From: a virus
DNA length: 64,000 nucleotides
Direction: 5' to 3' (one strand)
IMG/VR virus record: IMGVR_UViG_3300010388_000228
Location: 1-64,000 of that record
A program made the position numbers and the translations under genes. The notes under the pieces were generated by a model that searched no databases, had not been told where the DNA came from, and saw only the letters and a list, made by a program, of their open reading frames with translations. Below are positions 7,511-26,086 of this stretch, in pieces (position 1 is the first letter of the stretch; each line of letters begins with the position of its first letter).

Positions 7511-7709
7511 ACAAGCACCAAAACTTAAACAAGAGCTGGATTATGACGAAGCTTGGCTTTACTGCGCCACACTAACCCACAATAACAAATACGACTGGCG
7601 CCTCCCTACACATAAAGAATACATGAGCCACGAACACATCGTAGGTTGGTTTAAACACAGAGATAGCTGGGGAGACTTCCCAATTATACCCGTGAGAGAC
7701 AAACTATGA
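7503..7709 (+). CDS. DUF1566-like array member 26
   Basis: AWLYCATLTHNNKYDWRLPT..PVRD. Confidence 0.8.
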   Translation: MIEQAPKLKQELDYDEAWLYCATLTHNNKYDWRLPTHKEYMSHEHIVGWFKHRDSWGDFPIIPVRDKL

Positions 7710-7954
7710 TTATCGAACAAGCTCCCCCATCACTCCAACCCCTGTCTATAGAAGATACCTTCTTATACACTATAACTTGCTCACACAACAACAAACACGA
7801 CTGGCGTCTCCCCACCCATAAAGAGGTAGCTTACTATGCTTTGAACAACTGCTGGCGCAATATTGATAGCGACGATAACAATGACTGGGCTAAGACTAGA
7901 TGGCACAATTGGAGTTCTCGCTATGTGTGTATCCCCGTGAGAGACAAACTATGA
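7706..7954 (+). CDS. DUF1566-like array member 27
   Basis: IEQAP..HDWRLPT..PVRD. Confidence 0.8.
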   Translation: MIIEQAPPSLQPLSIEDTFLYTITCSHNNKHDWRLPTHKEVAYYALNNCWRNIDSDDNNDWAKTRWHNWSSRYVCIPVRDKL

Positions 7955-8190
7955 AAGAAACCGCCATACAATCTAAACATAAACAAACCCAAGACGAAGC
8001 GTTCTTGTACATTATAACCTGTACACATAACAATCATTACGACTGGAGATTCCCTACTATATACGAATTTATATATAGTGGATTTTTTACTAATCGAGAT
8101 GTTTGGAATATTGAGAATGTGAATAATCCGTATCTTAATATAGTAAAAGTGAAATATATGACTCTTCCTATTAGAGATATAAAGAGATAA
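7951..8190 (+). CDS. DUF1566-like array member 28
   Basis: Start at ATG 7951; YDWRFPT..PIRD. Confidence 0.8.
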   Translation: MKETAIQSKHKQTQDEAFLYIITCTHNNHYDWRFPTIYEFIYSGFFTNRDVWNIENVNNPYLNIVKVKYMTLPIRDIKR

Positions 8191-8213
8191 TGCAACACAT
8201 CCATTGCATACAC

Positions 8214-8468
8214 ATACTATAGTAAGAATAACGATAATAATAACTCTTTACATACCATAACACACTATAGTATAATAAGCAATAGTTACAGCAATCCAAA
8301 CTATAGTAACAGTAAACGCTATAGTATAATAAGTATGCCTAACTATCCACACTATAGTATAGACTATAGTGATAATACTAATGATCCACGCTATAGTAAG
8401 AGAATCATAGAGGTTCCCTATAGTAGCGTATAAGAGAACCCTGACTATAGTAAAAACTATAGTATAGA
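8214..8468. repeat. AT-rich non-coding cluster of about 10 palindromic CTATAG (ACTATAGT) motifs
   Basis: CTATAG recurs roughly every 10-50 bp; no ORF of 60 aa or more. Confidence 0.75.
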
Positions 8469-8777
8469 GATGAAAGCGAGGCCTGCAAAAAATTTTTTGA
8501 AAAAGGTTAACAATAGATGAGGCCTATGGTGGTTACAGGAGATATTGTTAACCAATGGCAGCAGGCCTGCAGGAATTATGAGGTTTTTGGAGGTTTTGGC
8601 AAAAGTATGACGCAAGTATGGTGGTATTCATTGTAGCTATGCCGTCCAACCACCCATTCCTGCTATATCGTTACAGTTATATTACAGTGGTAAAATTGTG
8701 CCAAAACAGTGCTTTACAATACCAAAACAGTGTGCTATACTATGCACATATTAACAAACTAACTGGAGCGTACCAAA

Positions 8778-8948
8778 ATGCACTTAATATTTGAACTTAT
8801 TGGTCTTGTATTCCTAGCAGCCATCTCTATAGCGTTGCTTGCCACAATACTATTAGTAATAGGCGCAGTCGGATTATTTCAAACACACAATCCATTGTTT
8901 GTACTACCATTGTTATTTGGTGTAATGCTTGCAAGCGCGTTGGATTAA
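8778..8948 (+). CDS. small two-TM membrane protein (56 aa; not in ORF track)
   Basis: TTTACA..TATACT promoter, GGAGCG RBS, MHLIFELIGLVFLAAISIALLATILLVIGAVG... Confidence 0.6.
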   Translation: MHLIFELIGLVFLAAISIALLATILLVIGAVGLFQTHNPLFVLPLLFGVMLASALD

Positions 8949-8955
8949 AAACCAG

Positions 8956-9018
8956 TTGACACTCTATACTATACTATAGTATAATAAACACTTACTAACA
9001 CACAATGCGGAGCGCAAT
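8956..9018 (+). promoter_or_regulatory. sigma70-type promoter plus conserved leader (cttactaacacacaatgcGGAGCG)
   Basis: TTGACA..TATAAT; the same leader precedes the ATGs at 61, 10430, 11508 and 12904. Confidence 0.75.
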
Positions 9019-9897
9019 ATGCAACAACCAATAGCTAAACCCCAAATGATTACTATAGACACTCTTAAGTCAACTCGTACTATAGCGCAAAGACCAGCCG
9101 AACCAGTATCACACGAAACAGATGAAGAGATTGTAGAACGATTGCGTACACGGTTTGCCATACTAGATAACATGACTCGTGCAGTAAAGAAAGGTGATGT
9201 GCGAGCAATGATTGTAAGTGGACCTCCGGGCGTAGGTAAGTCACATGGTATTGAAACAGTGTTATCTAGACACGATGTATTCGCTACTATAGCGCAAGAT
9301 GACAGCTTAAAGAAGTATGAGATTGCTAAAGGTAACATTAGCGCGTTAGGACTGTACCAGATGCTGTGGAACTTCAAAGACCATCGCTCTATAGTAGTGT
9401 TTGATGACTGCGATAGTGTATTGTTTGATGATATCGCGTTAAACCTGTTAAAAGCAGCATTGGACACAGGGCGCAAGCGTACTATCAGTTGGCACACAGA
9501 GTCACGCATACTAAAAGAAGCAGGGATTCCAAACAGTTTTGACTTTGAAGGTGGATGTATATTCATTACAAATGTTAAGTTTGACCATGTACGTAGTAAG
9601 AAGTTAAAGGACCATTTAGAAGCGTTAGAGTCACGGTGCCACTACTTGGATCTCACTATAGATACAGAGCGCGAAAAGATGTTACGCATCAAGCAAATCG
9701 TAGGGGATGGAATGCTTGATAAGTATGAGTTCGTCAATGGCGAAGCGGACGAAGTAGTACAGTATATAGACGCGCATAGAAAGAAGATGCGTGAGTTAAG
9801 TTTGCGTATGGTTCTTAAGGTTGCCGACTTGCGTAAGAGCATGCCAAACAACTGGGAGACTGTAGCTTCCATTACATGTATGCGACCACAACGATAA
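9019..9897 (+). CDS. P-loop/AAA+ ATPase
   Basis: Walker A GPPGVGKS, Walker B VVFDDCD, sensor-like FITN, ALESRC. Confidence 0.85.
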   Translation: MQQPIAKPQMITIDTLKSTRTIAQRPAEPVSHETDEEIVERLRTRFAILDNMTRAVKKGDVRAMIVSGPPGVGKSHGIETVLSRHDVFATIAQDDSLKKYEIAKGNISALGLYQMLWNFKDHRSIVVFDDCDSVLFDDIALNLLKAALDTGRKRTISWHTESRILKEAGIPNSFDFEGGCIFITNVKFDHVRSKKLKDHLEALESRCHYLDLTIDTEREKMLRIKQIVGDGMLDKYEFVNGEADEVVQYIDAHRKKMRELSLRMVLKVADLRKSMPNNWETVASITCMRPQR

Positions 9898-9916
9898 TAA
9901 GAATCGCATATAATTA

Positions 9917-10035
9917 AGAATACTATTGATTCGCTCCCAATAGTATTCTACACTATAGTATAGATTCGCTCCCTATACTATAGTAAACTCTCAAAGCTCA
10001 CTTTAGATTCGCTCCCTAAAGTGAGCTTTTTCTTT
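9917..10035 (+). ncRNA. three-hairpin RNA element with identical AUUCGCUCC loops; third hairpin doubles as intrinsic terminator
   Basis: Perfect stems 9917-9949 (12 bp), 9952-9984 (12 bp) and 9993-10029 (14 bp); U tract after the third. Confidence 0.6.
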
Positions 10036-10429
10036 ATATTAAAAACCAGACCCTGTACTCTGGTACTAGGTCGGTCTATAAACGTGAAAAACGGCAAAAA
10101 CATGGTGTTGCAGACCGCTAACGACGCGGGCCAAAAACCAAAGATGAGTCTTAAATATAGGAGCCTGGACTAGTAATAGGCCCCGCTGTGCAGTTATACT
10201 CATATGCGTATATGCGTGTATTATTACACTATAGTGTATCATAGCGTAAAATGCGCTGTAATGCGTTACACGCGCTGGTGCGTACTTATGCTATAGTATG
10301 TTATGCGCTTATAATATAACACGCTACACACGCACATACAAGCGAGCGTATACGAGTAACAAAGTTCTTTACAGACCCCGCTGTATATGTTATACTATGT
10401 ACTTACTAACAACAACTGCGGAGCACGCA

Positions 10430-10732
10430 ATGAAGTTATGCAATGTACCACAAGACTTATTAGCAAAGCAAGCAATGATAGATACTATTCCAGACATGAT
10501 TTGGATAGCACTAATAGTAACCTTGCTTAGTGGACTATACTATATGTATAAGAGGTTACGGGCAGATGATGCATTAGATCCAAAGGATGATGTAGCAATG
10601 GGATTCTTTCTTATAGTATTAACTATCGGCGGAGCACTGTTGTCAGCCGAGTTGCTCAAACATATCATAACCGCATTCCTTAATCCAGAGTATGCAGCAA
10701 TGGTTAAGTTTACTGCAGAGTGCGTCAAATGA
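10430..10732 (+). CDS. hypothetical membrane protein (2 TM)
   Basis: Start at 10430 after promoter and GGAGC; two hydrophobic helices. Confidence 0.65.
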   Translation: MKLCNVPQDLLAKQAMIDTIPDMIWIALIVTLLSGLYYMYKRLRADDALDPKDDVAMGFFLIVLTIGGALLSAELLKHIITAFLNPEYAAMVKFTAECVK

Positions 10733-11277
10733 TCCGCGCTGCCATTCTCGCTACTATAGTAGTAATGCCGATACATGCGGATGTGTATCGGTATACAGGA
10801 GCAGATGGGAGAGTTTGGTTAACTGATCATCCACAAGAGATCGCAACATCTGCCAAACCTACTACTATAGTAAAGAAACCGGAGACTCGCCCACTAACTC
10901 GATGGGAGATCAACCACTATGTTCATGCTGCGGCAAAGAAGTATGGAGTGGATGAGAAGTTAGTTCATGCAGTCATTAAAACGGAAAGTACATATCGTAA
11001 ATCGGCTGTAAGTAAGAAGGGAGCAGCTGGATTGATGCAGCTGATGCCAGCAACGGCAGAGCGATTTGGTGTGAGTGATCGGATGGATGAGCGGCAGAAC
11101 ATAGAGGGCGGAGTCCGGTTCCTAAGGTTCTTGCTCGATACATTCAAAGATACCAAACTAGCGGTTGCCGGATACAATGCGGGCGAGCATGCGGTAATGC
11201 GACATAAGAACCGGATTCCACCATATCCGGAAACCCGAAACTATGTGGGATTGGTAATGGCGGCATACACTGAATAA
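10729..11277 (+). CDS. secreted soluble lytic transglycosylase (SLT) with DUF4124-like N-terminus
   Basis: Signal peptide; ADVYRYTGADG..TDHP; AVIKTES, GAAGLMQLMP, AGYNAGE, PPYPETRNYV. Confidence 0.9.
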   Translation: MIRAAILATIVVMPIHADVYRYTGADGRVWLTDHPQEIATSAKPTTIVKKPETRPLTRWEINHYVHAAAKKYGVDEKLVHAVIKTESTYRKSAVSKKGAAGLMQLMPATAERFGVSDRMDERQNIEGGVRFLRFLLDTFKDTKLAVAGYNAGEHAVMRHKNRIPPYPETRNYVGLVMAAYTE

Positions 11278-11507
11278 CAAACCAGTTGACAACCAATGCG
11301 TAGTTTGCTATACTATGCGTGTACTATATATAAGAGGAGCAAGCAATAATGTCGTTTTTATATAATTTCGCAGTGTTTACTACTATAGTATTACTAAGTG
11401 TAATCGCGTTATTGAACTGGTATGAGTTAGTGATTTAAAAAGTTCTTTACAAACCAAAGTTAGTTTGTTATACTATACACTTACTAACAAGCAATGCGGA
11501 GCGTACA

Positions 11508-11696
11508 ATGTATAAACTAACACTTACTACCACAAGCAAGCATCCAGTAATTATTTACTTTGGTGCCAACGGTATCGCAGTATCACCAAGTGACATGTTC
11601 ACTTATGTGTATGTAAATGGCAACAGCTGGCAAACAGAAGAATCAGCTGAGTCGATCGAAGCGCGTATTGATGCAGCGATTGCGGCACGTGGTTAA
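11508..11696 (+). CDS. small hypothetical early protein
   Basis: Own promoter and GGAGCG RBS; similar to 789..983. Confidence 0.65.
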   Translation: MYKLTLTTTSKHPVIIYFGANGIAVSPSDMFTYVYVNGNSWQTEESAESIEARIDAAIAARG

Positions 11697-11804
11697 CAAA
11701 CTACTTGCAAAATGTTTTAAAACGTGTATAATATGTAACAAGTTAGCAAGCAAGCTAACTAGCAGTAAAACAACTTAACTTTTCTATTTTTTGGAGCGTA
11801 CAAT

Positions 11805-12167
11805 ATGTCAAAAGTAATCACAGTTGCAACAGTTGAAAAAACATTCACATTCGCTGGCGTTAGCGACCTCAACGGTGTGTACAAAATCCGCTTTGCTAAC
11901 AGCGCGGATCGTGTGAAAGTGTTACACCGCAATGGGCACTTAGACATTCGCTTAGTAGCGTTAGCGGGTGCAATGACTAAATATGAAGCAGCAATGGCAA
12001 TCAAAGACTTAGAGGAGTTCGCGGACTTAGATGCACAACAAGCATTCGATGACTTCTTTAGCAAAACTGCTATCGTTACTCCCAAAACTGCTGTAATTGA
12101 GACAGCAGATGATGTAGACTATGCGGCAGCAGCAGATGCATTGGAAGCTGAGTTAGCGACAGCATAA
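11805..12167 (+). CDS. hypothetical early protein, family A
   Basis: GVSD..YKIRF..H.DIR..FAD..AQ.A...F.SK shared with 17662..18039. Confidence 0.7.
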   Translation: MSKVITVATVEKTFTFAGVSDLNGVYKIRFANSADRVKVLHRNGHLDIRLVALAGAMTKYEAAMAIKDLEEFADLDAQQAFDDFFSKTAIVTPKTAVIETADDVDYAAAADALEAELATA

Positions 12168-12175
12168 GGTAATAG

Positions 12176-12206
12176 GCCCCGCTGTATGTATATGTGCGGC
12201 GGGGCG
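12176..12206 (+). terminator. hairpin built on the GCCCCGCTG motif
   Basis: gccccgctg...cggcggggc pairing right after the stop codon. Confidence 0.4.
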
Positions 12207-12231
12207 ACTTAACTACTTAGTTGGAGTTGTT

Positions 12232-12405
12232 ATGGATACTATAGAGCAAAACTTAACAGAGCAATTGGCAATACTTCAAACACGCAGTGCGACCTTAATG
12301 CAAGAGCGCAAAGAGTTCTTTGCTGAAATGTATGAAGATTGGGAAAACGAGATAGATGATGCATATGAACCAATAGCCTGGTACGACATGTGGGACGATG
12401 AGTAA
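12232..12405 (+). CDS. small acidic protein (57 aa; not in ORF track)
   Basis: GGAG RBS; MDTIEQNL...EDWENEIDDAYEPIAWYDMWDDE. Confidence 0.55.
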   Translation: MDTIEQNLTEQLAILQTRSATLMQERKEFFAEMYEDWENEIDDAYEPIAWYDMWDDE

Positions 12406-12552
12406 CCGGCAATCCGACCGACCTCCCCCCCCCCCGGATAGACCCCGCTGCTTACACACGCGTGTGCGGGCGCGTATGATGTATAAAGTTCTTTACAAAC
12501 CATGTGTTATACTGTATAATATGTTTTTTAACTACTACAGCGTGCTACTACT

Positions 12553-12810
12553 ATGTCAAAATACAATGTATCATTAAACGCCAAACTTAAAGCATACAAG
12601 CAAGCCGAAGCGGAGGCAGCTGCCCAAAAGCCAAAGCGCCTAGTATCAATAGAGACCGCCCGCCAAATCCGTTCGCTCCGCTCTCAATTGAGTGCCGCGC
12701 GTGTCAACTCTAAGCAGTATCTTGAGATCAACACACAGCTAAACCGTATATACATTGCGGAGATGGCACTTGATGAAGCGTTTGAGAAAGCGCAGTTAGA
12801 AGCCGCATAG
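12553..12810 (+). CDS. hypothetical early protein, family B
   Basis: NSKQYLEIN..N..Y..E shared with 13732..13920; own promoter. Confidence 0.65.
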   Translation: MSKYNVSLNAKLKAYKQAEAEAAAQKPKRLVSIETARQIRSLRSQLSAARVNSKQYLEINTQLNRIYIAEMALDEAFEKAQLEAA

Positions 12811-12903
12811 TATAGATATACCGGCAGGCGGTTAACAAAGTTCTTTACAAACCGCCTGCTATGCTTTATAATATACACTTACTAAACAACAACGGAGCGT
12901 CAA

Positions 12904-13251
12904 ATGCACCCATATAACCAAGCTAAAATTAACATGTCAGCTGCCAATAATGCTATTATTGCGCAGTACAATTGGACTATCAGTAAAACTACAGCAATAT
13001 ATATGGTTGCTGATTATGAGTTTGCTGAAGAATGGGCGCAGGACTTTATGACACATCCAGCACACATTGACAAAAAGATTAAAGCGATATACAATGCTTT
13101 TCCGGACAAACACGAGCTATGGAACAATAACACGTTGAAAGCGCAGTTAGTAGAGAAAGTTGAAGCGCATACGGACTTAGTGGATTACATTAACGGGCTG
13201 TTACGAAACGCTGAGTTCGTTGAGTGCTGTGCGCAAGGTGAGGGGTTGTAG
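12904..13251 (+). CDS. hypothetical early protein, family C
   Basis: AD..FAEEW..HPAHI..LWN..VE.H.DLVDYIN..AEFV shared with 16050..16397. Confidence 0.7.
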   Translation: MHPYNQAKINMSAANNAIIAQYNWTISKTTAIYMVADYEFAEEWAQDFMTHPAHIDKKIKAIYNAFPDKHELWNNNTLKAQLVEKVEAHTDLVDYINGLLRNAEFVECCAQGEGL

Positions 13252-13264
13252 AGTAAAATACCAT

Positions 13265-13344
13265 TTGCTAACTTGCGTTTAGTTTGCTATACTATGTGCA
13301 AGTTAGCAATAACGCTAACTTATAACTATAGCGTGTAAACTACT
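13265..13344 (+). promoter_or_regulatory. repeated promoter cassette: TTGCTA-17-TATACT, AAGTTAGC-aataac-GCTAACTT palindrome, AGCGTG leader
   Basis: Near-identical copies at about 13649, 13944, 14395, 15974, 16492 and 17472; variants at about 11705 and reversed at about 20045-20100. Confidence 0.8.
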
Positions 13345-13626
13345 ATGCCAAAAACTGCTAACCCTGTTGTAATCGCTACACTCAAACAATGTGTTACTAA
13401 CTTCAATGCTCAAGCAAAAGAGTATTTCGAAACAACGGATCGCGATCTCAGTGATCTTGGGTTGTTGTGTACTGAAGATGCCAAGTACAACCAAAAGTGT
13501 TTAATCAGTTATATGAAGACTGGCGACTACGATGAGTTAATCGGTAAGTTGGTATATCAGGATACTCTACCAAGAGAACGAGTTATCTATGCAATGATGG
13601 AAGCCGGCTGCTATCCGGAGGTGTGA
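13345..13626 (+). CDS. hypothetical early protein
   Basis: ORF directly downstream of a promoter cassette. Confidence 0.65.
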   Translation: MPKTANPVVIATLKQCVTNFNAQAKEYFETTDRDLSDLGLLCTEDAKYNQKCLISYMKTGDYDELIGKLVYQDTLPRERVIYAMMEAGCYPEV

Positions 13627-13731
13627 AAATATAGATCAAAAGTATCAGTTGCTAACCTGTGCTTAGTTTGCTATACTATGTGCAAGTTAGCAATAACGCT
13701 AACTTTTAACACTACTACAGCGTACACTACT

Positions 13732-13920
13732 ATGTCAAAAATACTCTATGTTACCTCAGCAGCGCGTATCAAATACATTAACATGCTCACACGCCAATTG
13801 CGTACTAAACCAAAAAACAGCAAACCATATCTCGAGTTAAACGATGCAATCAACAAGTTCTACAAAGAGGAGCTTGAAGCAGCTGATGCAGTAGCACGCG
13901 GCGAGCTTGTGGAGCTATAG
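13732..13920 (+). CDS. hypothetical early protein, family B
   Basis: Start at ATG 13732 after the cassette; NSKPYLELN. Confidence 0.65.
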   Translation: MSKILYVTSAARIKYINMLTRQLRTKPKNSKPYLELNDAINKFYKEELEAADAVARGELVEL

Positions 13921-14022
13921 GTTAAAGCTTCGTAAAAAACCATTTGCTAACTTGCGCTTAGTTTGCTATAATATGTGCAAGTTAGCAATAACGCTAACTT
14001 ATAACTTTACAGCGTGTATATT

Positions 14023-14373
14023 ATGCAAAATAAAATTACTAATATTATTAAAAACGCAGCAGCATCGCACAACCTCGAAGTCACAATTACACACAACTGG
14101 AGCAATACGGGCACCATGTTTATCACTAAAGCGAACAGTATGGAAACAGTGACTAAGCTGGACTTTTGGTTCTATCAAAACTATGTAACGTTCGATGCTC
14201 GCACACGCGGTGTAACGATTAATCCAAAAGCTAAAGCATTGGATTACAGTGAAACAATTGACTACGTGAATCACGTGGAGTTTGAAAACTTTATGCAACG
14301 ATTAGTTGGCAGCTGGGGTGCTGTTGAGTTGCAAGACTTAAGCGATGTAATTGACTCATATGCGGTAGCATAG
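14023..14373 (+). CDS. hypothetical early protein
   Basis: ATG 14023 after the cassette and AGCGTG. Confidence 0.65.
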   Translation: MQNKITNIIKNAAASHNLEVTITHNWSNTGTMFITKANSMETVTKLDFWFYQNYVTFDARTRGVTINPKAKALDYSETIDYVNHVEFENFMQRLVGSWGAVELQDLSDVIDSYAVA

Positions 14374-14482
14374 AGCAAGCGGTAAACAAAACGCTTGCAA
14401 TGTTGTAAGCGTTTTGCTATACTATGTGCAAGTTAGCAATGTTGCTAACTTGTTAAACAAACTACTACACTGGAGCGCCACA

Positions 14483-14890
14483 ATGCAAACTACTACTAAA
14501 TTACTTAAAAACACAGCTAACGCTATTGCTCACGTTGTATCACACACATCGGACGAAGTCAAACTTCCAGCTTATGTGTGCTTGCAGGATATTAAGCGTA
14601 GAGATGCAGAGAATGTGGAATTGTACAGTGCGGTACAGTTGCATGTTGGGGAAGCGTTGTTAGCGCATATTGAGGATGTGTATATACAGAGCAACGTGTA
14701 TTTGAACTACCGCAAAAAGTTTATTGCCGTTAAAGTCAACAGTCCCAAGTTTACTGATAAAGCAAGTTTAAGAGCAGCGAAGTTAGATATATGGGCAGAG
14801 GCTAATGGAATTGTAATTGAGCATACGAGACACGGCAACATGGTGTACAGAGCTAACATGGATGCACTGGATGCCATAGCAGCCGCATAG
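14483..14890 (+). CDS. hypothetical early protein
   Basis: ATG 14483 after GGAGCG. Confidence 0.65.
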   Translation: MQTTTKLLKNTANAIAHVVSHTSDEVKLPAYVCLQDIKRRDAENVELYSAVQLHVGEALLAHIEDVYIQSNVYLNYRKKFIAVKVNSPKFTDKASLRAAKLDIWAEANGIVIEHTRHGNMVYRANMDALDAIAAA

Positions 14891-15001
14891 GCCCCGCTGC
14901 TTATACACGCGCATTGCAGGCACAATGGTTAATAAACTGCTTGCAATGCGCGTACAATAGTGTATAATATACACAACTTAAACAAATAGCGTGTAAAAAT
15001 T

Positions 15002-15157
15002 ATGCAAGTAAAAAACATTAAACTGATACACACATATTGCAGTACGTGTGGGGACTTGAGTGTACTACACAACATGGAAACAGATGAGCTCGAACCATGT
15101 TGGGCTTGTGAGCAAACTGAAGCAAATGACTTTAACGATAAAGCGGAGCGTGTATAA
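15002..15157 (+). CDS. small zinc-ribbon-like protein (51 aa; not in ORF track)
   Basis: CSTC...CWAC; promoter TTGCAA..TATAAT; TAATG overlap with next gene. Confidence 0.6.
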   Translation: MQVKNIKLIHTYCSTCGDLSVLHNMETDELEPCWACEQTEANDFNDKAERV

Positions 15158-15423
15158 TGGCAACAGGTATTATGAACAACGAAGTTAAACAACAACAAGC
15201 AGCGGAGTTAGCGGCTCGCGTGGCAATGTTCTTAGCAACCGGTGGACAGATTAAAACGACTAAAACAGGACGCAGAGGGCGTACGACAGTATCACAAGTT
15301 CATACTCCCCGCGTTGTGGTAGTAGAGAAACAACGATACACATGGGAAGAGGCAAAACGGGAGCTAGCGGAGATTGGCTTACTGACTAAGCCAGTACAAT
15401 CGGCAATCAAAGCACGCCAATAG
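15157..15423 (+). CDS. hypothetical early protein, family D
   Basis: V..FL..GG....K and W..A...L shared with 16574..16864. Confidence 0.65.
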   Translation: MATGIMNNEVKQQQAAELAARVAMFLATGGQIKTTKTGRRGRTTVSQVHTPRVVVVEKQRYTWEEAKRELAEIGLLTKPVQSAIKARQ

Positions 15424-15489
15424 ACCCCGCTGCTTACACGCGCGTATAATCGAGTACGCGCGTATTACAACAAATAATCGGAGCACATC

Positions 15490-15861
15490 ATGTTAATCCA
15501 AAAAGTATTGAAAAACCATATTAAGTTTTTAAACGATGTACAGGCTAAACTCGAAGACATTCACAACACCATTGCATTCAATACAGAGGTAACCCGGTCA
15601 CTATCGAATGGCTTCCATATGCTCAAAGAGAAGGAGCGTAAGACAGTTTCAAAAGTATTGCTAAATGATGTATCGAATGTAATTGGTTATAAGGAAGCTG
15701 ATGTAATTGATCTTGTGGCACAACTACATTACACGAGCGCAATGGGCATAGTGAGCACAACGGAAAGCGACTTATACGATTTAGTGTATTGCTTGGATAT
15801 TCCATTAATGATCGAGCGTATGAAACAACGATATGCTGAAGTAGAGAGTATGATGGCATAA
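15490..15861 (+). CDS. hypothetical early protein
   Basis: GGAGC RBS; 123-aa ORF. Confidence 0.6.
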   Translation: MLIQKVLKNHIKFLNDVQAKLEDIHNTIAFNTEVTRSLSNGFHMLKEKERKTVSKVLLNDVSNVIGYKEADVIDLVAQLHYTSAMGIVSTTESDLYDLVYCLDIPLMIERMKQRYAEVESMMA

Positions 15862-15872
15862 CTGATATATCG

Positions 15873-15888
15873 GGCACAGGGAAGTGCC
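15873..15888 (+). promoter_or_regulatory. CsrA/RsmA-type hairpin ggcac-AGGGAA-gtgcc
   Basis: Matches CANGGANG with a hexaloop on a 5-bp stem. Confidence 0.6.
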
Positions 15889-16049
15889 GATTAACCGGGC
15901 AACCTGACAGACCGACCAACCACCCCCCCCCCCCGGGTTGCCCACTAGTGGTAATAATACCAAAATAAAATGCTTTACAAAATGTTTTAATGTGCTATAC
16001 TATGTGCAAGTTAGCAATAACGCTAACTTATAACTATAGCGTGTAAATT

Positions 16050-16397
16050 ATGCAAAATACTACTACAGCAACAAACAACAAAATTAACGTATTAAACGCA
16101 AACACAAGCAAGTACCCGCTAACTCCCAGCGTAACAAGTACAGTGTTTATGTTGGCGGACGAGGGCTATGCGGAGGAGTGGGGCACTACTGAGCATCCGG
16201 TGCACATAATTGCGCAAATGGTAACAATATACAACAGACATTATGAAGCACATGATGACTTGTGGAACGATGATGCTGCGGTACAAGCGTTTATAGAGGA
16301 AGTAGAGGAGCACGAGGACTTAGTGGATTACATAAACAATGTGGCATTACAGGACGCTGAGTTTGTGTATAACTGCTTGTGTGGATCGGGACTATAA
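16050..16397 (+). CDS. hypothetical early protein, family C (acidic)
   Basis: Paralog of 12904..13251. Confidence 0.7.
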   Translation: MQNTTTATNNKINVLNANTSKYPLTPSVTSTVFMLADEGYAEEWGTTEHPVHIIAQMVTIYNRHYEAHDDLWNDDAAVQAFIEEVEEHEDLVDYINNVALQDAEFVYNCLCGSGL

Positions 16398-16406
16398 CGG
16401 ATACAA

Positions 16407-16424
16407 CGGCACAAGGAAGTGCCG
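16407..16424 (+). promoter_or_regulatory. CsrA/RsmA-type hairpin cggcac-AAGGAA-gtgccg
   Basis: ACANGGANGU consensus, 6-bp stem. Confidence 0.6.
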
Positions 16425-16573
16425 CTTTAATCGGCCCCGCTGTTTATGTGTACGCGTGTGGGCGCATGGTTAATAAAACTAAAAATAATGCTTTACTTAC
16501 CAGTTTTACTTTGCTATACTATGTGCAAGTTAGCAATAACGCTAACTTATAACTTTACAGCGTGCTTACTACT

Positions 16574-16864
16574 ATGTTTAATAATACAAACAAACAAACA
16601 AAAAACGCAGCAACAAACGCAGCAGTACAAGCGTTTTTGGACAACGGCGGTACAGTGACACGCCGCAAAAGCAATGTACCGGAAGTCAGTGCACCACCTG
16701 CCAACTACTTTACAAGTACTGATGCGCCGAAAGCAGTTGACAAATTGGACAGCTGGGAAGTAGCACTTGCAAAGCTAACAACGATATTACCGGGAAGCGG
16801 CATTAAGGTAGTATGGAACGACGGACGTGCGGCAAGCAGTGTAGAGGAACTGTACGGACTATAA
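16574..16864 (+). CDS. hypothetical early protein, family D
   Basis: ATG 16574; VQAFLDNGGTV. Confidence 0.65.
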   Translation: MFNNTNKQTKNAATNAAVQAFLDNGGTVTRRKSNVPEVSAPPANYFTSTDAPKAVDKLDSWEVALAKLTTILPGSGIKVVWNDGRAASSVEELYGL

Positions 16865-16874
16865 GGTAACACAG

Positions 16875-16890
16875 AGCACATGGACGTGCT
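16875..16890 (+). promoter_or_regulatory. CsrA/RsmA-type hairpin agcac-ATGGAC-gtgct
   Basis: ACANGGANGU consensus. Confidence 0.6.
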
Positions 16891-17134
16891 GAACAACCGA
16901 GCAATCGGACAGACCGACCAACCACCCCCCCCCCGGAGAAGACGATGAACCGAATTAACCCATTACTAGCCGCTACGTTCAACACCCAAACAGATCGTAG
17001 AGAGTCGGAACGCAGACGCACTGAGCAGTTAAGAGAGCAACGAGCTGCAAAGAACACTGCGAAGTATGGTAACAACGACTTTGCGAGTGTGTTGGCAAGT
17101 GCATTAGTTGGCTATAGATAAAACGAACATAACG

Positions 17135-17150
17135 GGCGCAAGGACGCGCC
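17135..17150 (+). promoter_or_regulatory. CsrA/RsmA-type hairpin ggcgc-AAGGAC-gcgcc
   Basis: CANGGANG with a covarying stem. Confidence 0.55.
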
Positions 17151-17172
17151 GAAATAACCGGAGCAAAGAATA

Positions 17173-17370
17173 ATGGGCAAATTATATATATTGAAAGTGA
17201 TGATGTTTATTGGGGCGCAGGAAATTGATAACACATTCATATATCCATCAGAAGCCGAGTGCCAAGCGCACCGAGCAATGGAAGTACAGTTACTGGACAA
17301 GCTGAATGAATCGGTGCTCACCGGATACGCGACACGCTGTGATGTTGCTGGTGACAGTGATATGAGATAA
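17173..17370 (+). CDS. small hypothetical protein
   Basis: GGAGC RBS; 65 aa. Confidence 0.55.
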   Translation: MGKLYILKVMMFIGAQEIDNTFIYPSEAECQAHRAMEVQLLDKLNESVLTGYATRCDVAGDSDMR

Positions 17371-17661
17371 AAGAGGAAGTGTGAGTGCAGTGGTAGCGCG
17401 AGCAATGAGCTTGCGCTATTATAACACAAACAAATGCAAAATGCAAGCGGTAAATTAAATAAAAATAATGCTTGCAATGTTTTAAAAATAGCGTATAATG
17501 TAACACAAGTTAGCAATAACGCTAACTTTTAACACTACTACAGCGTGCTAATTATGCAAAATAAAACTAAAAAAACACTTGCTTTTACTGTAAAAAAAGT
17601 GTATAATGTGCAACATAAATTAAACTTAGTAACAAACAACAACACAAGTGGAGCGAACACT

Positions 17662-18039
17662 ATGAACACAACAACAAACACAACACCAGTTTTTGCACAA
17701 GTAGTAACAGCAAGCTCAAAAGCCAACAGCAAATTAGTACAATGCGTGGGTGTTAGCGATCACGCAAAGCTGGGCTACAAAATACGCTTTAGCGGCAAGC
17801 CCGAAGCAACGGCGCGTGTTACTACGCTAATTGCAACAAAATTACACACGGACATCCGCTTTATAAACTTAGCACAAATTAAAACGGAAATTGAGGCAGC
17901 TGTAGAATTAGAAGGGCATCCAAACTTTGCAGATGACAACGCGCAAATGGCTATTGCGGCGTTTTTAAGCAAGCATAACGCAACGGAAGTACAGGCAGCA
18001 AGAGACGCGTATGCGGAACTGTTAGCACAGGCGGCATAA
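17662..18039 (+). CDS. hypothetical early protein, family A
   Basis: ATG 17662 after GGAGCGAA; GVSDH..GYKIRF. Confidence 0.7.
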   Translation: MNTTTNTTPVFAQVVTASSKANSKLVQCVGVSDHAKLGYKIRFSGKPEATARVTTLIATKLHTDIRFINLAQIKTEIEAAVELEGHPNFADDNAQMAIAAFLSKHNATEVQAARDAYAELLAQAA

Positions 18040-18051
18040 GCAAGTACACAG

Positions 18052-18067
18052 GGCACAGGGACGTGCC
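18052..18067 (+). promoter_or_regulatory. CsrA/RsmA-type hairpin ggcac-AGGGAC-gtgcc
   Basis: ACANGGANGU consensus just after the stop codon. Confidence 0.6.
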
Positions 18068-18151
18068 GCAACTGGAAAAAATAACACTTGCAATTAGTTT
18101 TAAAACGTGTATAATATACACATACTTTAACAAAACAGCGTGCTAACTACA

Positions 18152-18367
18152 ATGCAAACTAAACAACAAACAGTACACAATTTTTTAAACAAACAAGCGC
18201 AAACAGCTCACCACACCGTGAGCCCCGAGACCGGGACTGCCGCCCCGGGTTTGTTTAATACAGTAATGACAGCTGTGGTTACAACAATACAGTTTATAAT
18301 ATTGGCAATGCCATTTGCAATCGCAATTGCCGGCTTTGGTGGCGCGTTTGACGCATTGGTAAAATAA
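18152..18367 (+). CDS. small membrane protein
   Basis: ATG 18152 after promoter and AGCGTG; C-terminal hydrophobic helix. Confidence 0.6.
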   Translation: MQTKQQTVHNFLNKQAQTAHHTVSPETGTAAPGLFNTVMTAVVTTIQFIILAMPFAIAIAGFGGAFDALVK

Positions 18368-18458
18368 ATAAATATAACGCTTGCATATAGTGTAACACTA
18401 TGCTATACTATATGCAAGTTAAGTAATAACACTTAACTACTAACTGGAGATAGACAAC

Positions 18459-18533
18459 ATGGCAAGAAGATCCGACAGAGCAAAGACAGCAGGACAGAAA
18501 GCGGTACGTCGATACATTAGACGCAACAAATAA
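18459..18533 (+). CDS. 24-aa Arg/Lys-rich peptide (not in ORF track)
   Basis: Own promoter TTGCAT..TATACT, GGAGA RBS, MARRSDRAKTAGQKAVRRYIRRNK. Confidence 0.5.
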   Translation: MARRSDRAKTAGQKAVRRYIRRNK

Positions 18534-18952
18534 AAGGCCCCGCTGCTAGGTATTAGCGGCCCATGTTAGGATATAGGTAGTAGTATATCCTAACAACCAA
18601 ACACATTTTGCATTGTGTTACCCCGACCCTGTATTCATTATGCGATGATACAGGGTTTTTTATTGACCATCGCGTCAACCGAATAACCGGACCTAGTGGA
18701 CTTAAACTAACTGAACAATCGGATCTCCATCTATTTCTGTAACCATCTGCCACCTGCAAATCCGCAGGCCCCGCTGTAAGGTATTGTGGTTTGTTGCTTA
18801 TAAGTTTTAAACACGTTTAACAAGTACAATTTACAATGCTAAAATTTGCGTTTTAACGCGTGTACAATGCGCGTTTATATACTAAGCAATGCAACAATAG
18901 CAGTACAAAATTTTAAACGCTTACAACGCAAATACGCAATGGCAAAAGAAAC

Positions 18953-19497
18953 TTGACATTCCATATTAGAGGTGTTATACTATAGTGGTATGACCGACCT
19001 AATCGCAGGCCCCGCTGTAGCATATTAGGGGTTGACAGGAGGTGGGGAAAGGTGGTGGGGAAAGGTGGTATAATATAACATTGGCTCCGCCGAACCTCGG
19101 TTATATTTTTTAAAAAAATGCTTGCATTGTGTATAGTATAATGCTATAATATATTTTTTTAACAACACAGCGTATAATACAATGAATACATACTATTACG
19201 GTTACATATATAAACGGAACGCATACGCAATGTCCGGCGCGTTCGTTACCCTGCTTAGCCTTACGCGTAAGGAACATGCGGCGAGGTTGACTGGTAAGAT
19301 AAAAAGGTTAAAAGGAATAGTTGACTAAGGTGGGGATAGGTGCTATACTAATATAGCACCTGTTGCCGGTACAGTGAGACTACAGTGGCTGGACAGTTAT
19401 GGAAGGTGTGGTGCGTTACCGGATCGGGCCGTACGGCCCCGCTATAGCGTGTGCTATAGTATGTATATATTATAGCACGTTTAATGTGCAATGTCAA
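18953..19497. promoter_or_regulatory. cluster of consensus sigma70 promoters with little coding content
   Basis: + strand: TTGACA-17-TATACT (18953), TTGCAT-17-TATAAT (19122), TTGACT-17-TATACT (19321); - strand: TTGACA-17-TATAAT (19497-19469). Confidence 0.7.
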
Positions 19498-19550
19498 ATA
19501 AAAAACAAACAAAAAAAGTGCAACCCTTTCGGATTGCACTGTTTTGGTGC

Positions 19551-19952
19551 TTAGTTAGGTATTAAACATAATCCTGCATCAATAACGTGCTGTTTTGCTG
19601 CATCAATTTCCCCTTGTTGGTGCTTGTTAATGAACAATTCTAGTGCATTAACATGGTTATCACTAAAAGGCGTTCTATCGCTCGTTATTAGTGCATAGTT
19701 AGCGACTAATGTTAATGCGGCTTGTAATTGTGTACATGGCGCACTAATTTTGTACATTAACACTTCTGTATGCCCACATTGTGTGCTTTGCAAGTGACTT
19801 GCACGTTTGCTAACGTTTGCATCAGCACTAAAACGAGTTGCATACCCTATTGTATCTTTTGGGTGCTTGCTTACACCGAACCCTTGCACTAATTTTGCGC
19901 TGTTAGGTGTGCTTGTTGTTACTGCGTAGCTAATTGCTTGTTGTGCTTGCAT
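19551..19952 (-). CDS. hypothetical early protein, family A (divergent)
   Basis: NSAKLVQGFGVSKH..GYATRF..HTEV resembles 17662..18039; GGGGA RBS; reversed promoter cassette upstream. Confidence 0.65.
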   Translation of the reverse strand: MQAQQAISYAVTTSTPNSAKLVQGFGVSKHPKDTIGYATRFSADANVSKRASHLQSTQCGHTEVLMYKISAPCTQLQAALTLVANYALITSDRTPFSDNHVNALELFINKHQQGEIDAAKQHVIDAGLCLIPN

Positions 19953-20473
19953 AATAATTCCCCTTTTTTGTGCGGGTTAAATAAACATTAAGCGCGTATG
20001 CGCACGCTTAATGCGCGTGTTGTACTGCTACTAAGTTTTTAAAAAGCTAAGTTATTTGCTAACTTGTGTACAATTATACAGTATATAAAATAAAAAGCAA
20101 GCGTTTTTTTATTTTTTTTTTTACTTTTATTAAAAATAAATTGCTTGCAATGTATAAAAAAACGTGTTATAATAGTGTAACGCAATACACAATGCCCCGG
20201 GGGTGGGGGGTGTATATATACAACAATTTGTTGTTTTTTTACAACAACGCAACCTTTTTCTCTCTTTTCTCTAAAGTCTAAAAACACCTCTAAAAAGTCA
20301 CCATAGGTGCAAAATCACCACCGAGAATCTGTAAGTACTTCTTTCTAATTTTTTGCGCAGCAAAAAATTACATACCGCAGGACCCTTTTCGGACTATAAA
20401 AACAGTTCGGCCCGTAACTATCTCTACAGTGGAGTTACAGTGATATATACAGTATAGTCACAGTGGAGTCACA

Positions 20474-20680
20474 ATGGAACAATATAACAACCCCCCGGTC
20501 CCGAACAGCGTAGTCCCGGTTCGAGTAGAGTCTAGTAACAGTAGTTCTAGCCATGAGAGCCATCTAGCCAGCTTAGTACACCGTCTAGTAGAAACGGTAG
20601 AAAAGCAGCAAAGGCAAATACAAAGGCTGGAATCTACCATAGCAGAAGTTAGGGCAACCATAAACAGACTCAATGGTTAG
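20474..20680 (+). CDS. small coiled-coil hypothetical protein
   Basis: GGAG RBS; heptad-like C-terminus. Confidence 0.5.
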   Translation: MEQYNNPPVPNSVVPVRVESSNSSSSHESHLASLVHRLVETVEKQQRQIQRLESTIAEVRATINRLNG

Positions 20681-20825
20681 AAAAACTTAAAAAAATGGTG
20701 ATAATACTGTAGTGCCCCTAATCCATAAAAACAGTGGATAAACAGTGATAATAGAGTAGAGTCACCATAATGGGCCGGTAGTCTTTAATAAGCCAAGGTG
20801 TTATTAAAGTTTAGGGCCTGGGGCC

Positions 20826-20857
20826 AAAATAAAACCAGCTGTTGCTGGTTTTATTTT
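20826..20857. terminator. bidirectional intrinsic terminator at the strand switch
   Basis: aaaataaaaccagc-tgtt-gctggttttatttt between convergent units. Confidence 0.7.
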
Positions 20858-20918
20858 AAGTGTGCATCTAAAAGCTGAAAAATTGTTTTACCGCCTGCGT
20901 TGCAGGGTCAGTATGTTC

Positions 20919-23603
20919 TCATTGTTGTTGTAAAGCTGGGTCACTTCTATTTGGATTATTTCTATCGTCTTCATCCATATTATTAACAGTATCTAAAAAT
21001 GTTTCATCCCAGCCACCATTATACTGAGCGCGTTCTAATAAGTAGTTGTATTGTTCTTCAGTCATAAGTTCTTTTGGCACTGCAGACATAGTTTCTGGAT
21101 CGTGTTCTATTGCAAGTTTACAAAGTTCAAAGGTGCGATGATATCTTGGTATACCTACTAGCACGCCACCTTGCTCAGCTGCGTTACCGGTAGTAACTGC
21201 TGCTGCATGTAGCTCAAATAGTTCTTCTGGAGTAAACAATTTTTCAAGTTCTCTATAGTTTGCTTTACCTAGGCAATGTGAATTTTCAGCCTCATCTGAA
21301 TCCATATTTTCAACCATTATTTGTTTTATCTGTTGTTTAGCGTTGTCATCAAACAAGTGCCATGGGAAGTTAGCACTACAAATTGCGTATAAGTGATCCG
21401 TGCCGCCTGCATCTTCATAATCATCCCACCATTTTTCACGCATTTCGGATGTAAAGTCGCCGCCTAGAATTCCTATTGCAGCTGACCATAAGCTAAGTTC
21501 ATCGCGTGGAGTATTCATAATTTCAGGTAACTTATTACTGCCAATCAATGACCACGGATCGCTGAATACATGTTTTATATATAGTTCTTTGATCTTGTCT
21601 TCACTTAAAAAGGATGGAGGTTTAATATGGCCGTTAAACAGATAGGTTGAGTTGTTTGTGAGATGAGACATCCAAATATCTTTTAGTTCATTTTCAGTAA
21701 ATAAGCCATCTGGGATGTTATTAAAATCAACTATAGAATGTCGTGATTTTGATCGTGCAATCCACATATCTTTTTCATCTTTAGGCCCTAACAATGATAT
21801 TGGGAACTTACTATTATTAATCAAGTCAGGCTGCGCTTTAAGTGCTGCCATCCATATTTCAAGTTTTTGTTTAGGGTCAGTTATAAAATCTGGCATGCGA
21901 ACAATTGCGGCAGGTTTCTGTTCAAGTGCCTTTAATCGAATTTTATTTTTTTCTTCTTTTGAAAATATAGTAGTTTCATCAAACAAATCATGAGTCGCTT
22001 GGAACGGGTTAGATTCTATAGCTGCCAACCACATATCTTTTATCTCGTCATTACTAAACAGATTTGCTGGAAGGCCTGGATGATTTAAGTTGCCTATCGA
22101 TCGTATAATTTCATTGCGCCACAGTTCTTTAGTTTCAGCCGGTGTAAATAAGTTTTCTGGCCAATCGTCTGTACCTATGAAATCTTTAGCTGCAGGAGTC
22201 CATGCTTGTTTTAGTTCGTCTGTAGACCAACCAGTAGTAGTTACTGATTTAATAAGTTTCGGTACTAACTTTATTGCTTGGTGTGCTAGCTCTTTATATT
22301 TAGGTGCTCTAACAGGAATCATCTCAACTGCATATGGTCTTACCTTAATTACCTCTGACATTATGTTATAATTAGATCTAGTACGGGTACTTGCATATCC
22401 AACATCACTAGGGTTTTGTTTTAGATAGGCAGTAATACGGCGTTCCCAGTTAATAAGTGTTTCCGGGGCATAGATAATCATAATTGAACTTGTGTTAATA
22501 GCTTCTTCCCATACTTCACTTGATTGATTTATAGTACCTGCTTCGTCAACCAGTACACTAAGTCCTGCTAATTGTTGTATTGCATAGGTTCTAAATTCAG
22601 GATTAGCGCGAATATCTTGAGGTGCTCTTAAAAAATCAATTGGATATTTTTTAATTTGATCTGTAATTAATTGTGGTTTACTTTGAGCAATGTCTAATAC
22701 TAATGGTTCGTCCATATCAAATAAAGAAAAGTCACTTGATGGTTGATATGTCTTTCCTGTATATATGCCGTTAACTAAATCACTCTTTAACAGTGCTAAT
22801 AATGCGTAATGGAATTTCTTTGCTGGTTTAGAATTACTTCTACCTTTGCTTTGATGCAATACTCCGGTGTCTTTATTGTATTCAATAGTAACCCATGGTG
22901 TAGGTATTTTATCACGTAAACTTAATAATACATTACTGTTACTAGAAGCTGTGCCACAATGTCCCATAAACTTAGATTCTGCAGTGTGCTTATTAGTAGG
23001 TAGTAACCACCAATCACCTTGATTGCCAAGTGGTAATATAATTTGATCACCTGGCAAAATTTCAACCGGGGTTGCGTTCTTAATTTTAGATTCGTTTTCT
23101 TTTGTAATTTTTTCTACTGCTGCAGTTGCATTAGTAATAAGATTATCAACTTGGGTAGTAGCAGGTTTAATTGCTTTAACGATGTCTTTAATATGTTGCG
23201 ATGCGGCATATTCAGATGTAAAGAAATGTGCTAACTCTTCGTTTAATGAACTAAAATCACTGAACTGATATTGGCCAATCATTGCTTCAAACTTGCCTGC
23301 AAATTTAGGTTCGTTTCTTTTATAGTAAGTTTCAATTAATGACAAGTACCATTGCATTGCTTGTTCAGATGGGTTAGCGCCGGCTCTAAATGCTTCTTCA
23401 GCAAATTGAACTAATGCTGTTAATTGGGGTTCATCTGGAACAGATGGATCGCCTGGGATTGCAGGTTGTGCAGGTCCCCATTGTGTTTCTGGTTTCTCTG
23501 GGAAGCCTGCTCTTAGTTGAGCAAAGTCTTTATGTAGCTTAGTAACTTTAGTGTCGTATGCTTCAAAAAGATTTATTGTTTCGTATAATTCTCTTAATTT
23601 CAT
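20919..23603 (-). CDS. PcfJ-like domain plus DUF4116-like helical repeats, probable virion-packaged protein (paralog 3)
   Basis: MKLRELYE N-terminus; ES..MGHCG..LLSLRD..P..TIE..Q.KG..N; RTFELCKLAIEHDP repeat. Confidence 0.65.
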   Translation of the reverse strand: MKLRELYETINLFEAYDTKVTKLHKDFAQLRAGFPEKPETQWGPAQPAIPGDPSVPDEPQLTALVQFAEEAFRAGANPSEQAMQWYLSLIETYYKRNEPKFAGKFEAMIGQYQFSDFSSLNEELAHFFTSEYAASQHIKDIVKAIKPATTQVDNLITNATAAVEKITKENESKIKNATPVEILPGDQIILPLGNQGDWWLLPTNKHTAESKFMGHCGTASSNSNVLLSLRDKIPTPWVTIEYNKDTGVLHQSKGRSNSKPAKKFHYALLALLKSDLVNGIYTGKTYQPSSDFSLFDMDEPLVLDIAQSKPQLITDQIKKYPIDFLRAPQDIRANPEFRTYAIQQLAGLSVLVDEAGTINQSSEVWEEAINTSSIMIIYAPETLINWERRITAYLKQNPSDVGYASTRTRSNYNIMSEVIKVRPYAVEMIPVRAPKYKELAHQAIKLVPKLIKSVTTTGWSTDELKQAWTPAAKDFIGTDDWPENLFTPAETKELWRNEIIRSIGNLNHPGLPANLFSNDEIKDMWLAAIESNPFQATHDLFDETTIFSKEEKNKIRLKALEQKPAAIVRMPDFITDPKQKLEIWMAALKAQPDLINNSKFPISLLGPKDEKDMWIARSKSRHSIVDFNNIPDGLFTENELKDIWMSHLTNNSTYLFNGHIKPPSFLSEDKIKELYIKHVFSDPWSLIGSNKLPEIMNTPRDELSLWSAAIGILGGDFTSEMREKWWDDYEDAGGTDHLYAICSANFPWHLFDDNAKQQIKQIMVENMDSDEAENSHCLGKANYRELEKLFTPEELFELHAAAVTTGNAAEQGGVLVGIPRYHRTFELCKLAIEHDPETMSAVPKELMTEEQYNYLLERAQYNGGWDETFLDTVNNMDEDDRNNPNRSDPALQQQ

Positions 23604-23668
23604 TAATTGTCCTTAATATCTATAAGCGGTTGAGTCAGGTAACAGTAGTGTATAGTCTCAGAGTGTTT

Positions 23669-26077: not shown

Positions 26078-26086
26078 TAGGTGTCC

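Follow-up and report, generated by a model that had tools for sequence, protein, structure and literature searches.

The early-gene region of a T4-related jumbo phage from fresh water carries a repeated 10-nucleotide word, GRCCCCGCTG, which is strongly supported as a real, polar and selected signal and which probably works on the sense strand, coupled to transcription. The word was studied in the IMG/VR record IMGVR_UViG_3300010388_000228 (G000 in the following), and the window is the whole stretch of DNA analysed, the first 64 kb (positions 1 to 64,000) of this 98,182-bp record. A pattern scan finds 10 exact copies in the window, all on the + strand and all within 10179-19444, and allowing one mismatch adds a + copy at 19435 (GGCCCCGCTA) together with an unrelated minus-strand match at 50856. 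The first-pass annotation, made from the letters alone, had listed the same 11 copies on this one strand, and had judged their recurrence by chance to be implausible. Dinucleotide-preserving shuffles point the same way, with 0.01 GRCCCCGCTG matches expected and 1 as the largest number reached. Beyond these copies the 98,182-bp record is free of the motif, and the 7-mer CCCCGCT is present 11 times on its forward strand and never on the reverse strand. Including its flanks the motif is 13 to 15 nucleotides (nt) long, with the logo A-W-A-GRCCCCGCTG-Y-W, where the TG at the end of the core is invariant, the flanking Y is kept in 100% of the copies and the W in 93%.

The same word with the same flanks is found in more than 40 other viral contigs with a GC content of 36 to 50%, and within each contig the copies lie on one strand only. 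These contigs come from IMG/VR pattern scans for the motif, from which unrelated matches (pentapeptide-repeat and other coding repeats and one chance pair) were excluded. In about 45 related contigs, together 583 kb, the exact core has 144 forward copies and no reverse one, and the commonest one-mismatch variant has 6 copies compared with the 144 exact ones. The stringency of the core is partly an effect of ascertainment, because the scans picked out a locus by two exact copies; its remaining copies are unselected. An orientation-dependent signal, as had been proposed, is strongly supported, and the outcome is the opposite of an even spread over both strands or a loss in relatives, which the annotation had named as the observations that would speak against its proposal. 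As the word is near-invariant and polar in phages of such different GC content, some specific reader is presumably conserved across the clade.

One relative (G011; 372,016 bp, rated complete) is syntenic with G000 at 66 to 88% nucleotide identity and carries 19 copies, all forward and all in 320,293-371,874, within a + strand block of about 51 kb that comprises about 150 small open reading frames (ORFs) with sigma-70-type promoters. The other 320 kb of this genome contain no copy, which extends to a complete phage the absence from the core region that had been noted for the window. The present window therefore covers only the distal third of such a field. Four clear orthologous pairs between the two phages (10179, 12175, 14890, and 18536 in G000) have identical cores (10/10), as has a probable fifth pair at 12441, which has apparently been relocated, amid diverged flanks: the 60-nt flanks of orthologous copies are 53 to 92% identical, and their non-coding downstream side 53 to 78%. 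The last G011 copy lies within a tandem array of GCGCATAGCAA-type units at the contig end (371,800-372,016), and this array probably broke the assembly.

The distribution in G011 also bears on the first-pass suggestion of a Chi-like or translocase-directing site acting on the first-injected DNA. A Chi-like, translocase-guiding or DNA-entry signal would agree with a motif that is strictly polar and clustered in one region, but the word is restricted to the non-coding gaps of one block of about 51 kb, being absent from coding DNA and from the remaining 320 kb of the complete genome. With 13 to 15 nt it is also longer than the 5 to 8 nt of such signals, and the phage is T4 related, with no sign of fixed ends or of first-injected DNA. 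Of the known relatives, Phosso contains one copy and PA5oct and pEa_SNUABM_19 contain none, and a megablast search with the motif region returned nothing among cultured relatives. A scan of bacterial genomes with the motif produced ankyrin, nonribosomal peptide synthetase, and other high-GC coding matches and one ordinary terminator, but no host signal. We consider this explanation highly improbable. A metagenome scan for closer relatives yielded only G011-type loci and chance matches.

Table 1. Motif copies in the window, all on one strand, and the block in which they lie
Feature	Positions	Strand	Setting
Motif copy GGCCCCGCTG	10179..10188	+	Flanks aata / tg; orthologue of G011 362567
Motif copy GACCCCGCTG	10374..10383	+	Occupies nt 1 to 10 of the 17-nt spacer in promoter TTTACA(10368)-TATACT(10396)
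Motif copy GGCCCCGCTG	12175-12184 (element 12175..12205)	+	5' arm of a 12-bp hairpin; orthologue of G011 364783
Motif copy GACCCCGCTG	12441..12450	+	41 nt before the -35 of promoter 12492-12520; C11 run on the 5' side
Motif copy GGCCCCGCTG	14890..14899	+	TAG of ORF 14483-14890 ends on its first G; orthologue of G011 366693
Motif copy GACCCCGCTG	15423..15432	+	TAG of ORF 15157-15423 ends on its first G
Motif copy GGCCCCGCTG	16433..16442	+	49 nt upstream of promoter 16492-16520
Motif copy GGCCCCGCTG	18536..18545	+	2 nt past the TAA of a 24-codon basic ORF (18459-18533); orthologue of G011 369779
Motif copy GGCCCCGCTG	18767..18776	+	Within a non-coding stretch
Motif copy GGCCCCGCTG	19008..19017	+	About 25 nt past the -10 of consensus promoter 18953-18981; 13 nt before a TTGACA
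Variant copy GGCCCCGCTA	19435..19444	+	Short non-coding unit from promoter 19321-19349 to bidirectional terminator hairpin 19517-19540
Motif setting: distal part of the co-directional block of small early genes	8200..19550	+	Dense sigma-70-type promoters

The individual copies occupy different kinds of untranslated position (Table 1). The first-pass remark that they often directly follow stop codons is correct for six of them (10179, 12175, 12441, 14890, 15423, and 18536), with 10179 located 5 nt past the ORF listed at 10021-10173, 12175 located 7 nt past a TAA and 12441 located 35 nt past a TAA. It fails for 10374, which sits in a promoter spacer, and for 19008 and 19435, which lie downstream of promoters. 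The copy at 12175 is followed by a gene start at 12232 with no intervening promoter, and the one at 14890 is 41 nt upstream of a promoter (14941-14968); placement just upstream of a promoter applies to about 5 of the 11 copies in G000. On the 3' side of 15423, a hairpin with a 9-bp stem (15438-15463) precedes the Shine-Dalgarno (SD) sequence and ATG of the gene at 15490, again with no promoter between them, and a canonical intrinsic terminator (hairpin and U6, 18627-18661) lies about 80 nt downstream of 18536. The ACGCG-rich DNA that the annotation had seen after the copies generalises to tracts of alternating purines and pyrimidines just downstream of the motif, the longest alternating run having a mean of 9.5 nt downstream versus 6.7 nt upstream (p = 6e-7, n = 118). 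Homopolymer C runs of 10 to 12 also occur in the intergenic DNA, at 12425-12435 (just upstream of copy 12441), 15923-15934, and 16925-16934.

A similar variety is seen overall: among 146 distinct copies, 30 are no more than 3 nt away from where an open frame of at least 45 codons ends, 28 are located 5 to 45 nt upstream of a strong promoter, and 6 within 35 nt downstream of one. The G011 copies at 321342 and 331124 are clear examples from 5' untranslated regions (UTRs), in the order promoter, 25 to 35 nt, motif, SD sequence, and ATG, and those at 321600 and 340843 lie between cistrons without a promoter; in G000, the copy at 19008 is likewise placed in a 5' UTR. Most relatives have one main cluster of 3 to 5 copies in 300 to 700 bp at the head of a co-directional block, beside a GGTTGAC...TATAAT promoter. 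The operon downstream of this cluster is conserved and encodes a 106-residue BPSL0761-like protein, a small GIY-YIG protein, a 139-residue protein, and an AAA ATPase, and in 24 to 26 loci the conserved genes 3' of the clusters run in the same direction as the motif. Two relatives (G003 and L045) carry the motif in tandem 44-46-bp arrays. Beside the main cluster in several relatives (L031, about 2370-2410; G001, 19894-19995; G005, 50916-51020) we also find four 10-bp-phased AAAGTGTG/CACACTTT repeats resembling DnaA boxes, accompanied in G001 and G005 by the inverted repeat GGGGAGATCTAT. These repeats may mark an origin or a major regulatory site; neither they nor the inverted repeat are present at the head of the G011 block.

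A signal read on the sense strand and coupled to transcription is the simplest class of explanation, because all copies are in the sense orientation, the block has host-type promoters, the copies occupy untranslated positions of every kind, and the sequence is near-invariant; we consider this class the probable one. The position of the motif is flexible, not being tied to a set distance from promoter or ribosome-binding elements. The co-directional genes and the copies in 5' UTRs indicate that it is transcribed, and it is probably read during transcription. Two RNA libraries from a single study have assembled contigs that run across the copies at 10179, 12175, 14890, and 15423, with uneven cover of the stretch, which is a weak hint of transcription through the motif; these contigs belong to relatives, DNA carry-over is possible in RNA libraries, and uncovered parts carry no meaning. 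Contigs from two DNA runs cover the whole stretch.

Within this class, an elongation checkpoint by analogy with ops or boxA is the form that we favour, though only tentatively. In such a checkpoint, host RNA polymerase starting from any early sigma-70-type promoter would meet the word in an untranslated gap and might be held briefly at the invariant T-G step. A host or phage factor could then recognise the exposed GRCCCCGC, either in the non-template DNA or in the nascent RNA, and alter the behaviour of the polymerase or transcript downstream, for example by read-through of terminators and untranslated gaps or by a timed shut-off. The pausing, the factor, and the outcome are speculative.

Several points weigh against the transcription-coupled checkpoint. 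No pause, factor, or RNA end is observed in the read data, which consist of assembled contigs only, and a NusG/RfaH-type NGN domain (PF02357) is not encoded in G011, G000, or G006, another motif-bearing genome. The motif does not fit the sequence definition of either ops or boxA, and where the consensus pause has G-10 it has an A (86%). About a fifth of the copies stand shortly before a promoter, where a unit ends and a loading site would aid only polymerases that read through, and one copy (10374) sits in a promoter spacer. A preference for long untranslated gaps was considered and dropped, since the density of copies per kb of non-coding DNA is about equal in short and long gaps, so that there is no sign of preferred placement where Rho could load; the crude ORF calls behind this comparison over-call coding. 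Finally, the tandem 44-46-bp arrays look more like landing pads for a protein or sponge RNAs.

Nearly as likely as the elongation checkpoint, though likewise no better than a tentative proposal, is a site that acts at the level of the RNA. Here, the RNA word G(G/A)CCCCGCUG would be recognised by a sequence-specific RNA-binding protein or endoribonuclease, encoded by the phage or the host, and early mRNAs would be cut, protected, or marked where one cistron gives way to the next. The word would then work like the RNase III sites of T7 or the RegB targets of T4, setting mRNA stability or early shut-off. It shares with the checkpoint the polarity and the confinement to non-coding DNA and to the early block, and it fits every position, including the 3' UTR before a true terminator (18536) and the non-coding unit running from promoter to terminator (19435). 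At 15423, the motif together with a stable hairpin was gained in G000 as a unit of about 57 nt between cistrons, in the manner of intercistronic processing or stabiliser modules; the phage has stem-loops at the 5' ends of seven early transcripts, and the tandem arrays of the relatives could be multi-site RNAs. On the other hand, no bacterial or phage RNase or RNA-binding protein is known to read a linear GC-rich word of 10 to 15 nt. Hairpins beside the motif are not enriched overall in a positional scan, the contigs from the RNA libraries run through four copies (a weak argument, as they derive from relatives), and a phage-encoded antisense guide can be dismissed, as YAGYGGGGTY is found in the complete G011 only as the motif's own opposite strand. 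An Rfam E-value scan of 7500-21000 for a known RNA family gave nothing relevant. The first-pass idea of an RNA processing or antitermination box therefore stands as far as the class is concerned, which is the favoured one for its sense strand, its transcription, and its flexible position, while the data do not tell processing from elongation control.

A related possibility is that the motif ends transcripts. The promoter-early stem-loop (PeSL) cassettes of T4-type phages have a stem-loop of variable sequence after a stop codon and upstream of an early promoter (PMC2839356, PMC4122927), and the word, often placed like the PeSL stem-loop after a stop and before an AT-rich region and a -35 element (PMC4122927), might replace it as a factor-dependent polar terminator or insulator, closing the preceding unit and protecting the early promoter that follows from read-through. 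The small number of classical + strand terminators in the block would agree with this function. However, the motif has neither a hairpin nor a U tract, and some copies lie between a promoter and its gene, or between cistrons without a downstream promoter, where termination would silence genes. The canonical terminator about 80 nt past 18536 and, weakly, the RNA-library contigs that cross several copies point in the same direction, making a terminator or insulator quite improbable. A common hairpin or intrinsic terminator was rejected after folding the 11 copies, comparing 118 contexts with shuffles, and scanning hairpins by position, none of which revealed a consistent structure or a U tract; the copy at 12175 is the only one with a full complement for pairing. 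A promoter element or a translational operator was rejected as well, there being no fixed spacing to a -35, a -10, or an SD sequence.

The clusters and arrays of the relatives also raise the question of whether the word is bound as duplex DNA, as an asymmetric operator, iteron, or roadblock for an early or virion protein that regulates, insulates, or silences early promoters. The dispersed asymmetric C1 operators of P1 and polar protein roadblocks before promoters are analogues of such a site. The 3 to 5 direct copies at the head of the block upstream of the conserved GGTTGAC...TATAAT promoter and operon, the 28 of 146 copies that lie 5 to 45 nt before a strong -35, the tandem arrays in G003 and L045, and the near-invariant core, as is usual for specific DNA binders, are all in its favour. 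Yet the spacing to promoters is variable, many copies are far from promoters or intercistronic, and a duplex binder would not need strict co-orientation with transcription. No binder gene is universally linked to the motif among the types checked (106-residue, GIY-YIG, and resolvase proteins), and altogether a duplex DNA site seems unlikely.

The same candidates were considered as readers of any kind and set aside. The 106-residue BPSL0761-like protein has no known function and is not universal; neither this protein nor the small GIY-YIG one occurs in G000 or in 112 kb of G011 that include the early block. A Pfam scan of the whole of G011 found only four GIY-YIG genes, of 210 to 298 residues and outside the block. 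No resolvase scores above the family cut-off in G011 or G006, the sole match being a sub-threshold one in another contig (G008).

The comparison of the two syntenic phages further shows gain and loss of copies. Blocks of homology between G000 and G011 end at 10192, 10363, 12206, and 15423, each 0 to 22 nt from a copy. The copy at 15423 and its hairpin form an indel of about 57 nt right after a pre-existing ATAG, absent from G011, and the copy at 10374 is a 10-nt patch, 7 of its 10 bases differing from G011, in an otherwise conserved promoter, whose orthologue in G011 has a spacer of the same length and unrelated sequence. The indel and the patch indicate that the word turns over as a discrete unit. 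These observations are what could be expected of a recombination seam or a small mobile unit, where the word marks the exchange of early cassettes or is the conserved end of a mini-element inserting next to A-W-A-G. Copies are, however, kept at orthologous sites across divergent phages, a second element end is not conserved, the Y1 transposase is absent and no resolvase exceeds the cut-off, and gene ends are expected breakpoints in any case. The joints in the contigs of lake and estuary relatives, moreover, lie mostly at repeated promoters and not at the motif, running from promoter to promoter (8714 to 8956, 11440 to 17467, 10373 to 11301, and 13717 to 18146). Such promoter-to-promoter joining is the PeSL mechanism (PMC4122927), and PeSL-like shuffling of cassettes takes place at promoters in the early block. 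Because the joints lie at promoters and no transposase or recombinase was found, we regard the seam or mobile unit as a secondary property, and it is improbable as the function of the word. The recombination hotspot of the first-pass annotation is thus partly supported, by the four nearby breakpoints and the discrete patches, while the joints of the relatives speak against it.

The record itself represents only part (CheckV 27%) of the genome of a T4-related jumbo myovirus, which is about 360 to 370 kb long. It encodes tail sheath, gp15-like, and gp32-like proteins, UvsX, and a DnaB-type helicase, and its large terminase has 53% identity to the terminase of Pseudomonas phage PA5oct. Similar DNA is found in lake, freshwater, and estuary metagenomes. 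From position 1 to about 19,550 the record consists of small + strand genes, which close at a convergent junction with the minus-strand replication genes, and the dense series of sigma-70-type promoters starts at about 8.2 kb. The proteins of the block are nearly all orphans, except for a membrane protein, an SLT transglycosylase, and an AAA ATPase similar to T4 NrdC.10.

Several further elements were seen in and around the block. Seven + promoter units in 13299-17528 have a conserved promoter, TTGCTATACTATGTG, and the transcripts begin with the stem-loop CAAGTTAGC-AATAAC-GCTAACTT. Right after the AAA ATPase gene, at 9917-10035, there are three hairpins with differing stems and the common loop GATTCGCTCCC, which is complementary to the GGAGCG-type ribosome-binding sites of the region; the last of these hairpins precedes a U tract. 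The near-palindromic word ACTATAGTA is scattered around the promoters of 8216-11382, with about 13 forward and 7 reverse copies. At 19031-19075, TTGACA and TATAAT stand 31 nt apart, with a tandem pair of the 13-nt unit GGTGGGGAAAGGT (19041-19066) in the gap. If one of the pair were lost, the spacer would again be 18 nt; this could be a promoter switched by repeat number. Beyond the junction, three paralogous giant proteins of 894, 802, and 992 residues are encoded on the minus strand (20919-29065); they have a DUF4116 match only and are missing at the syntenic place in G011.

The dinucleotides GA, GG, TC, and CC are depleted in this part of the genome, with observed/expected ratios of 0.61 to 0.79 in positions 8000-20000 and 0.55 to 0.73 in G011 at 364-372 kb, versus about 0.85 to 0.98 elsewhere. 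An explanation by 7-deazaguanine was discarded, as a TGT/DpdA gene is absent from G011, G006, and G000 and depletion and motif do not go together in the proximal part of the G011 block.

T4-related giant phages devote at least 50 kb to small orphan early genes, and the transcription, timing, and reshuffling of this block are little understood. On a tentative view, an entire freshwater clade of uncultured jumbo phages has an ops-like word of its own, present 10 to 20 times per early block, at which host RNA polymerase would be checked and re-programmed. If true, the words would form a family of elongation-control signals that is new and would provide a handle on the scheduling of hundreds of orphan early genes, and knowing the reader would uncover a new point at which host RNA polymerase or early mRNA is controlled. 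The motif could also serve as a simple sequence tag by which early regions are located and oriented in metagenomic contigs of jumbo phages. Although the phage is uncultured, the motif is short and exact and hence directly testable in vitro on synthetic templates.

Among known signals, ops is the 12-nt recruitment site of RfaH (GGCGGTAGnnTG), with a C3:G8 pair and a pause-inducing TG at its 3' end (PMC5995543). Both ops and the motif are short, near-invariant, orientation dependent, and independent of promoters, and both lie in untranslated transcribed DNA. The motif copies are co-directional with the genes and several are located in 5' UTRs, which corresponds to the position of ops in the non-template strand of a transcribed leader. 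By analogy, both words start with GGC, could close a small loop by a single C:G pair (C3:G8 in ops, C3:G7 in the motif), and end in TG. In other respects they differ: only GGC...GC..TG is shared, the motif has 10 nt compared with the 12 nt of ops, and it has tens of copies per block, many at unit ends, whereas ops occurs once or twice per operon. The consensus pause has G at -10, the motif has A, and its invariant TG is followed by Y.

The boxA element of the lambda nut sites and the rrn leaders is the NusB/NusE site, a linear, conserved and polar RNA word of untranslated regions that modifies elongation. The 3' part of the motif with its flank (CGCUG-Y-W-A) resembles the lambda sequence CGCUCUUA, but the boxA core GCUCUUUA and a boxB hairpin are absent; the motif has no CUUU, and its GC-rich 5' half is conserved instead. 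The targets of T4 RegB (GGAG) and the RNase III sites of T7 are signals in early polycistronic mRNAs at cistron boundaries. These targets are 4 nt long or double-stranded, in contrast to the linear word of 13 to 15 nt described here.

The resemblance to PeSL cassettes is one of setting. The motif, too, lies in the hyperplastic early region of a T4-related myovirus, often after a gene and before a sigma-70-type early promoter, and some copies are close to indels between relatives. It is, however, a conserved linear word with no hairpin in 9 to 10 of the 11 copies (only 12175, with 12 bp, and perhaps 18536, with 7 bp, can pair), and other copies are far from promoters, in 5' UTRs or intercistronic DNA. 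A mini-element of the REP/RAYT or IS200/IS605 type does not match, as the motif is without a palindrome and the Y1 transposase (PF01797) is absent from G011, G006, and G000. Iterons and centromere-like arrays are clustered direct repeats beside the gene of their binding protein; the motif does form clusters and tandem arrays, but no neighbouring gene is universally linked to it. A literature search with the 10-mer returned no phage paper containing the word, and a search of the PA5oct literature brought up nothing similar. Polar cis-signals of phage early regions are known as a kind, to which the present word belongs.

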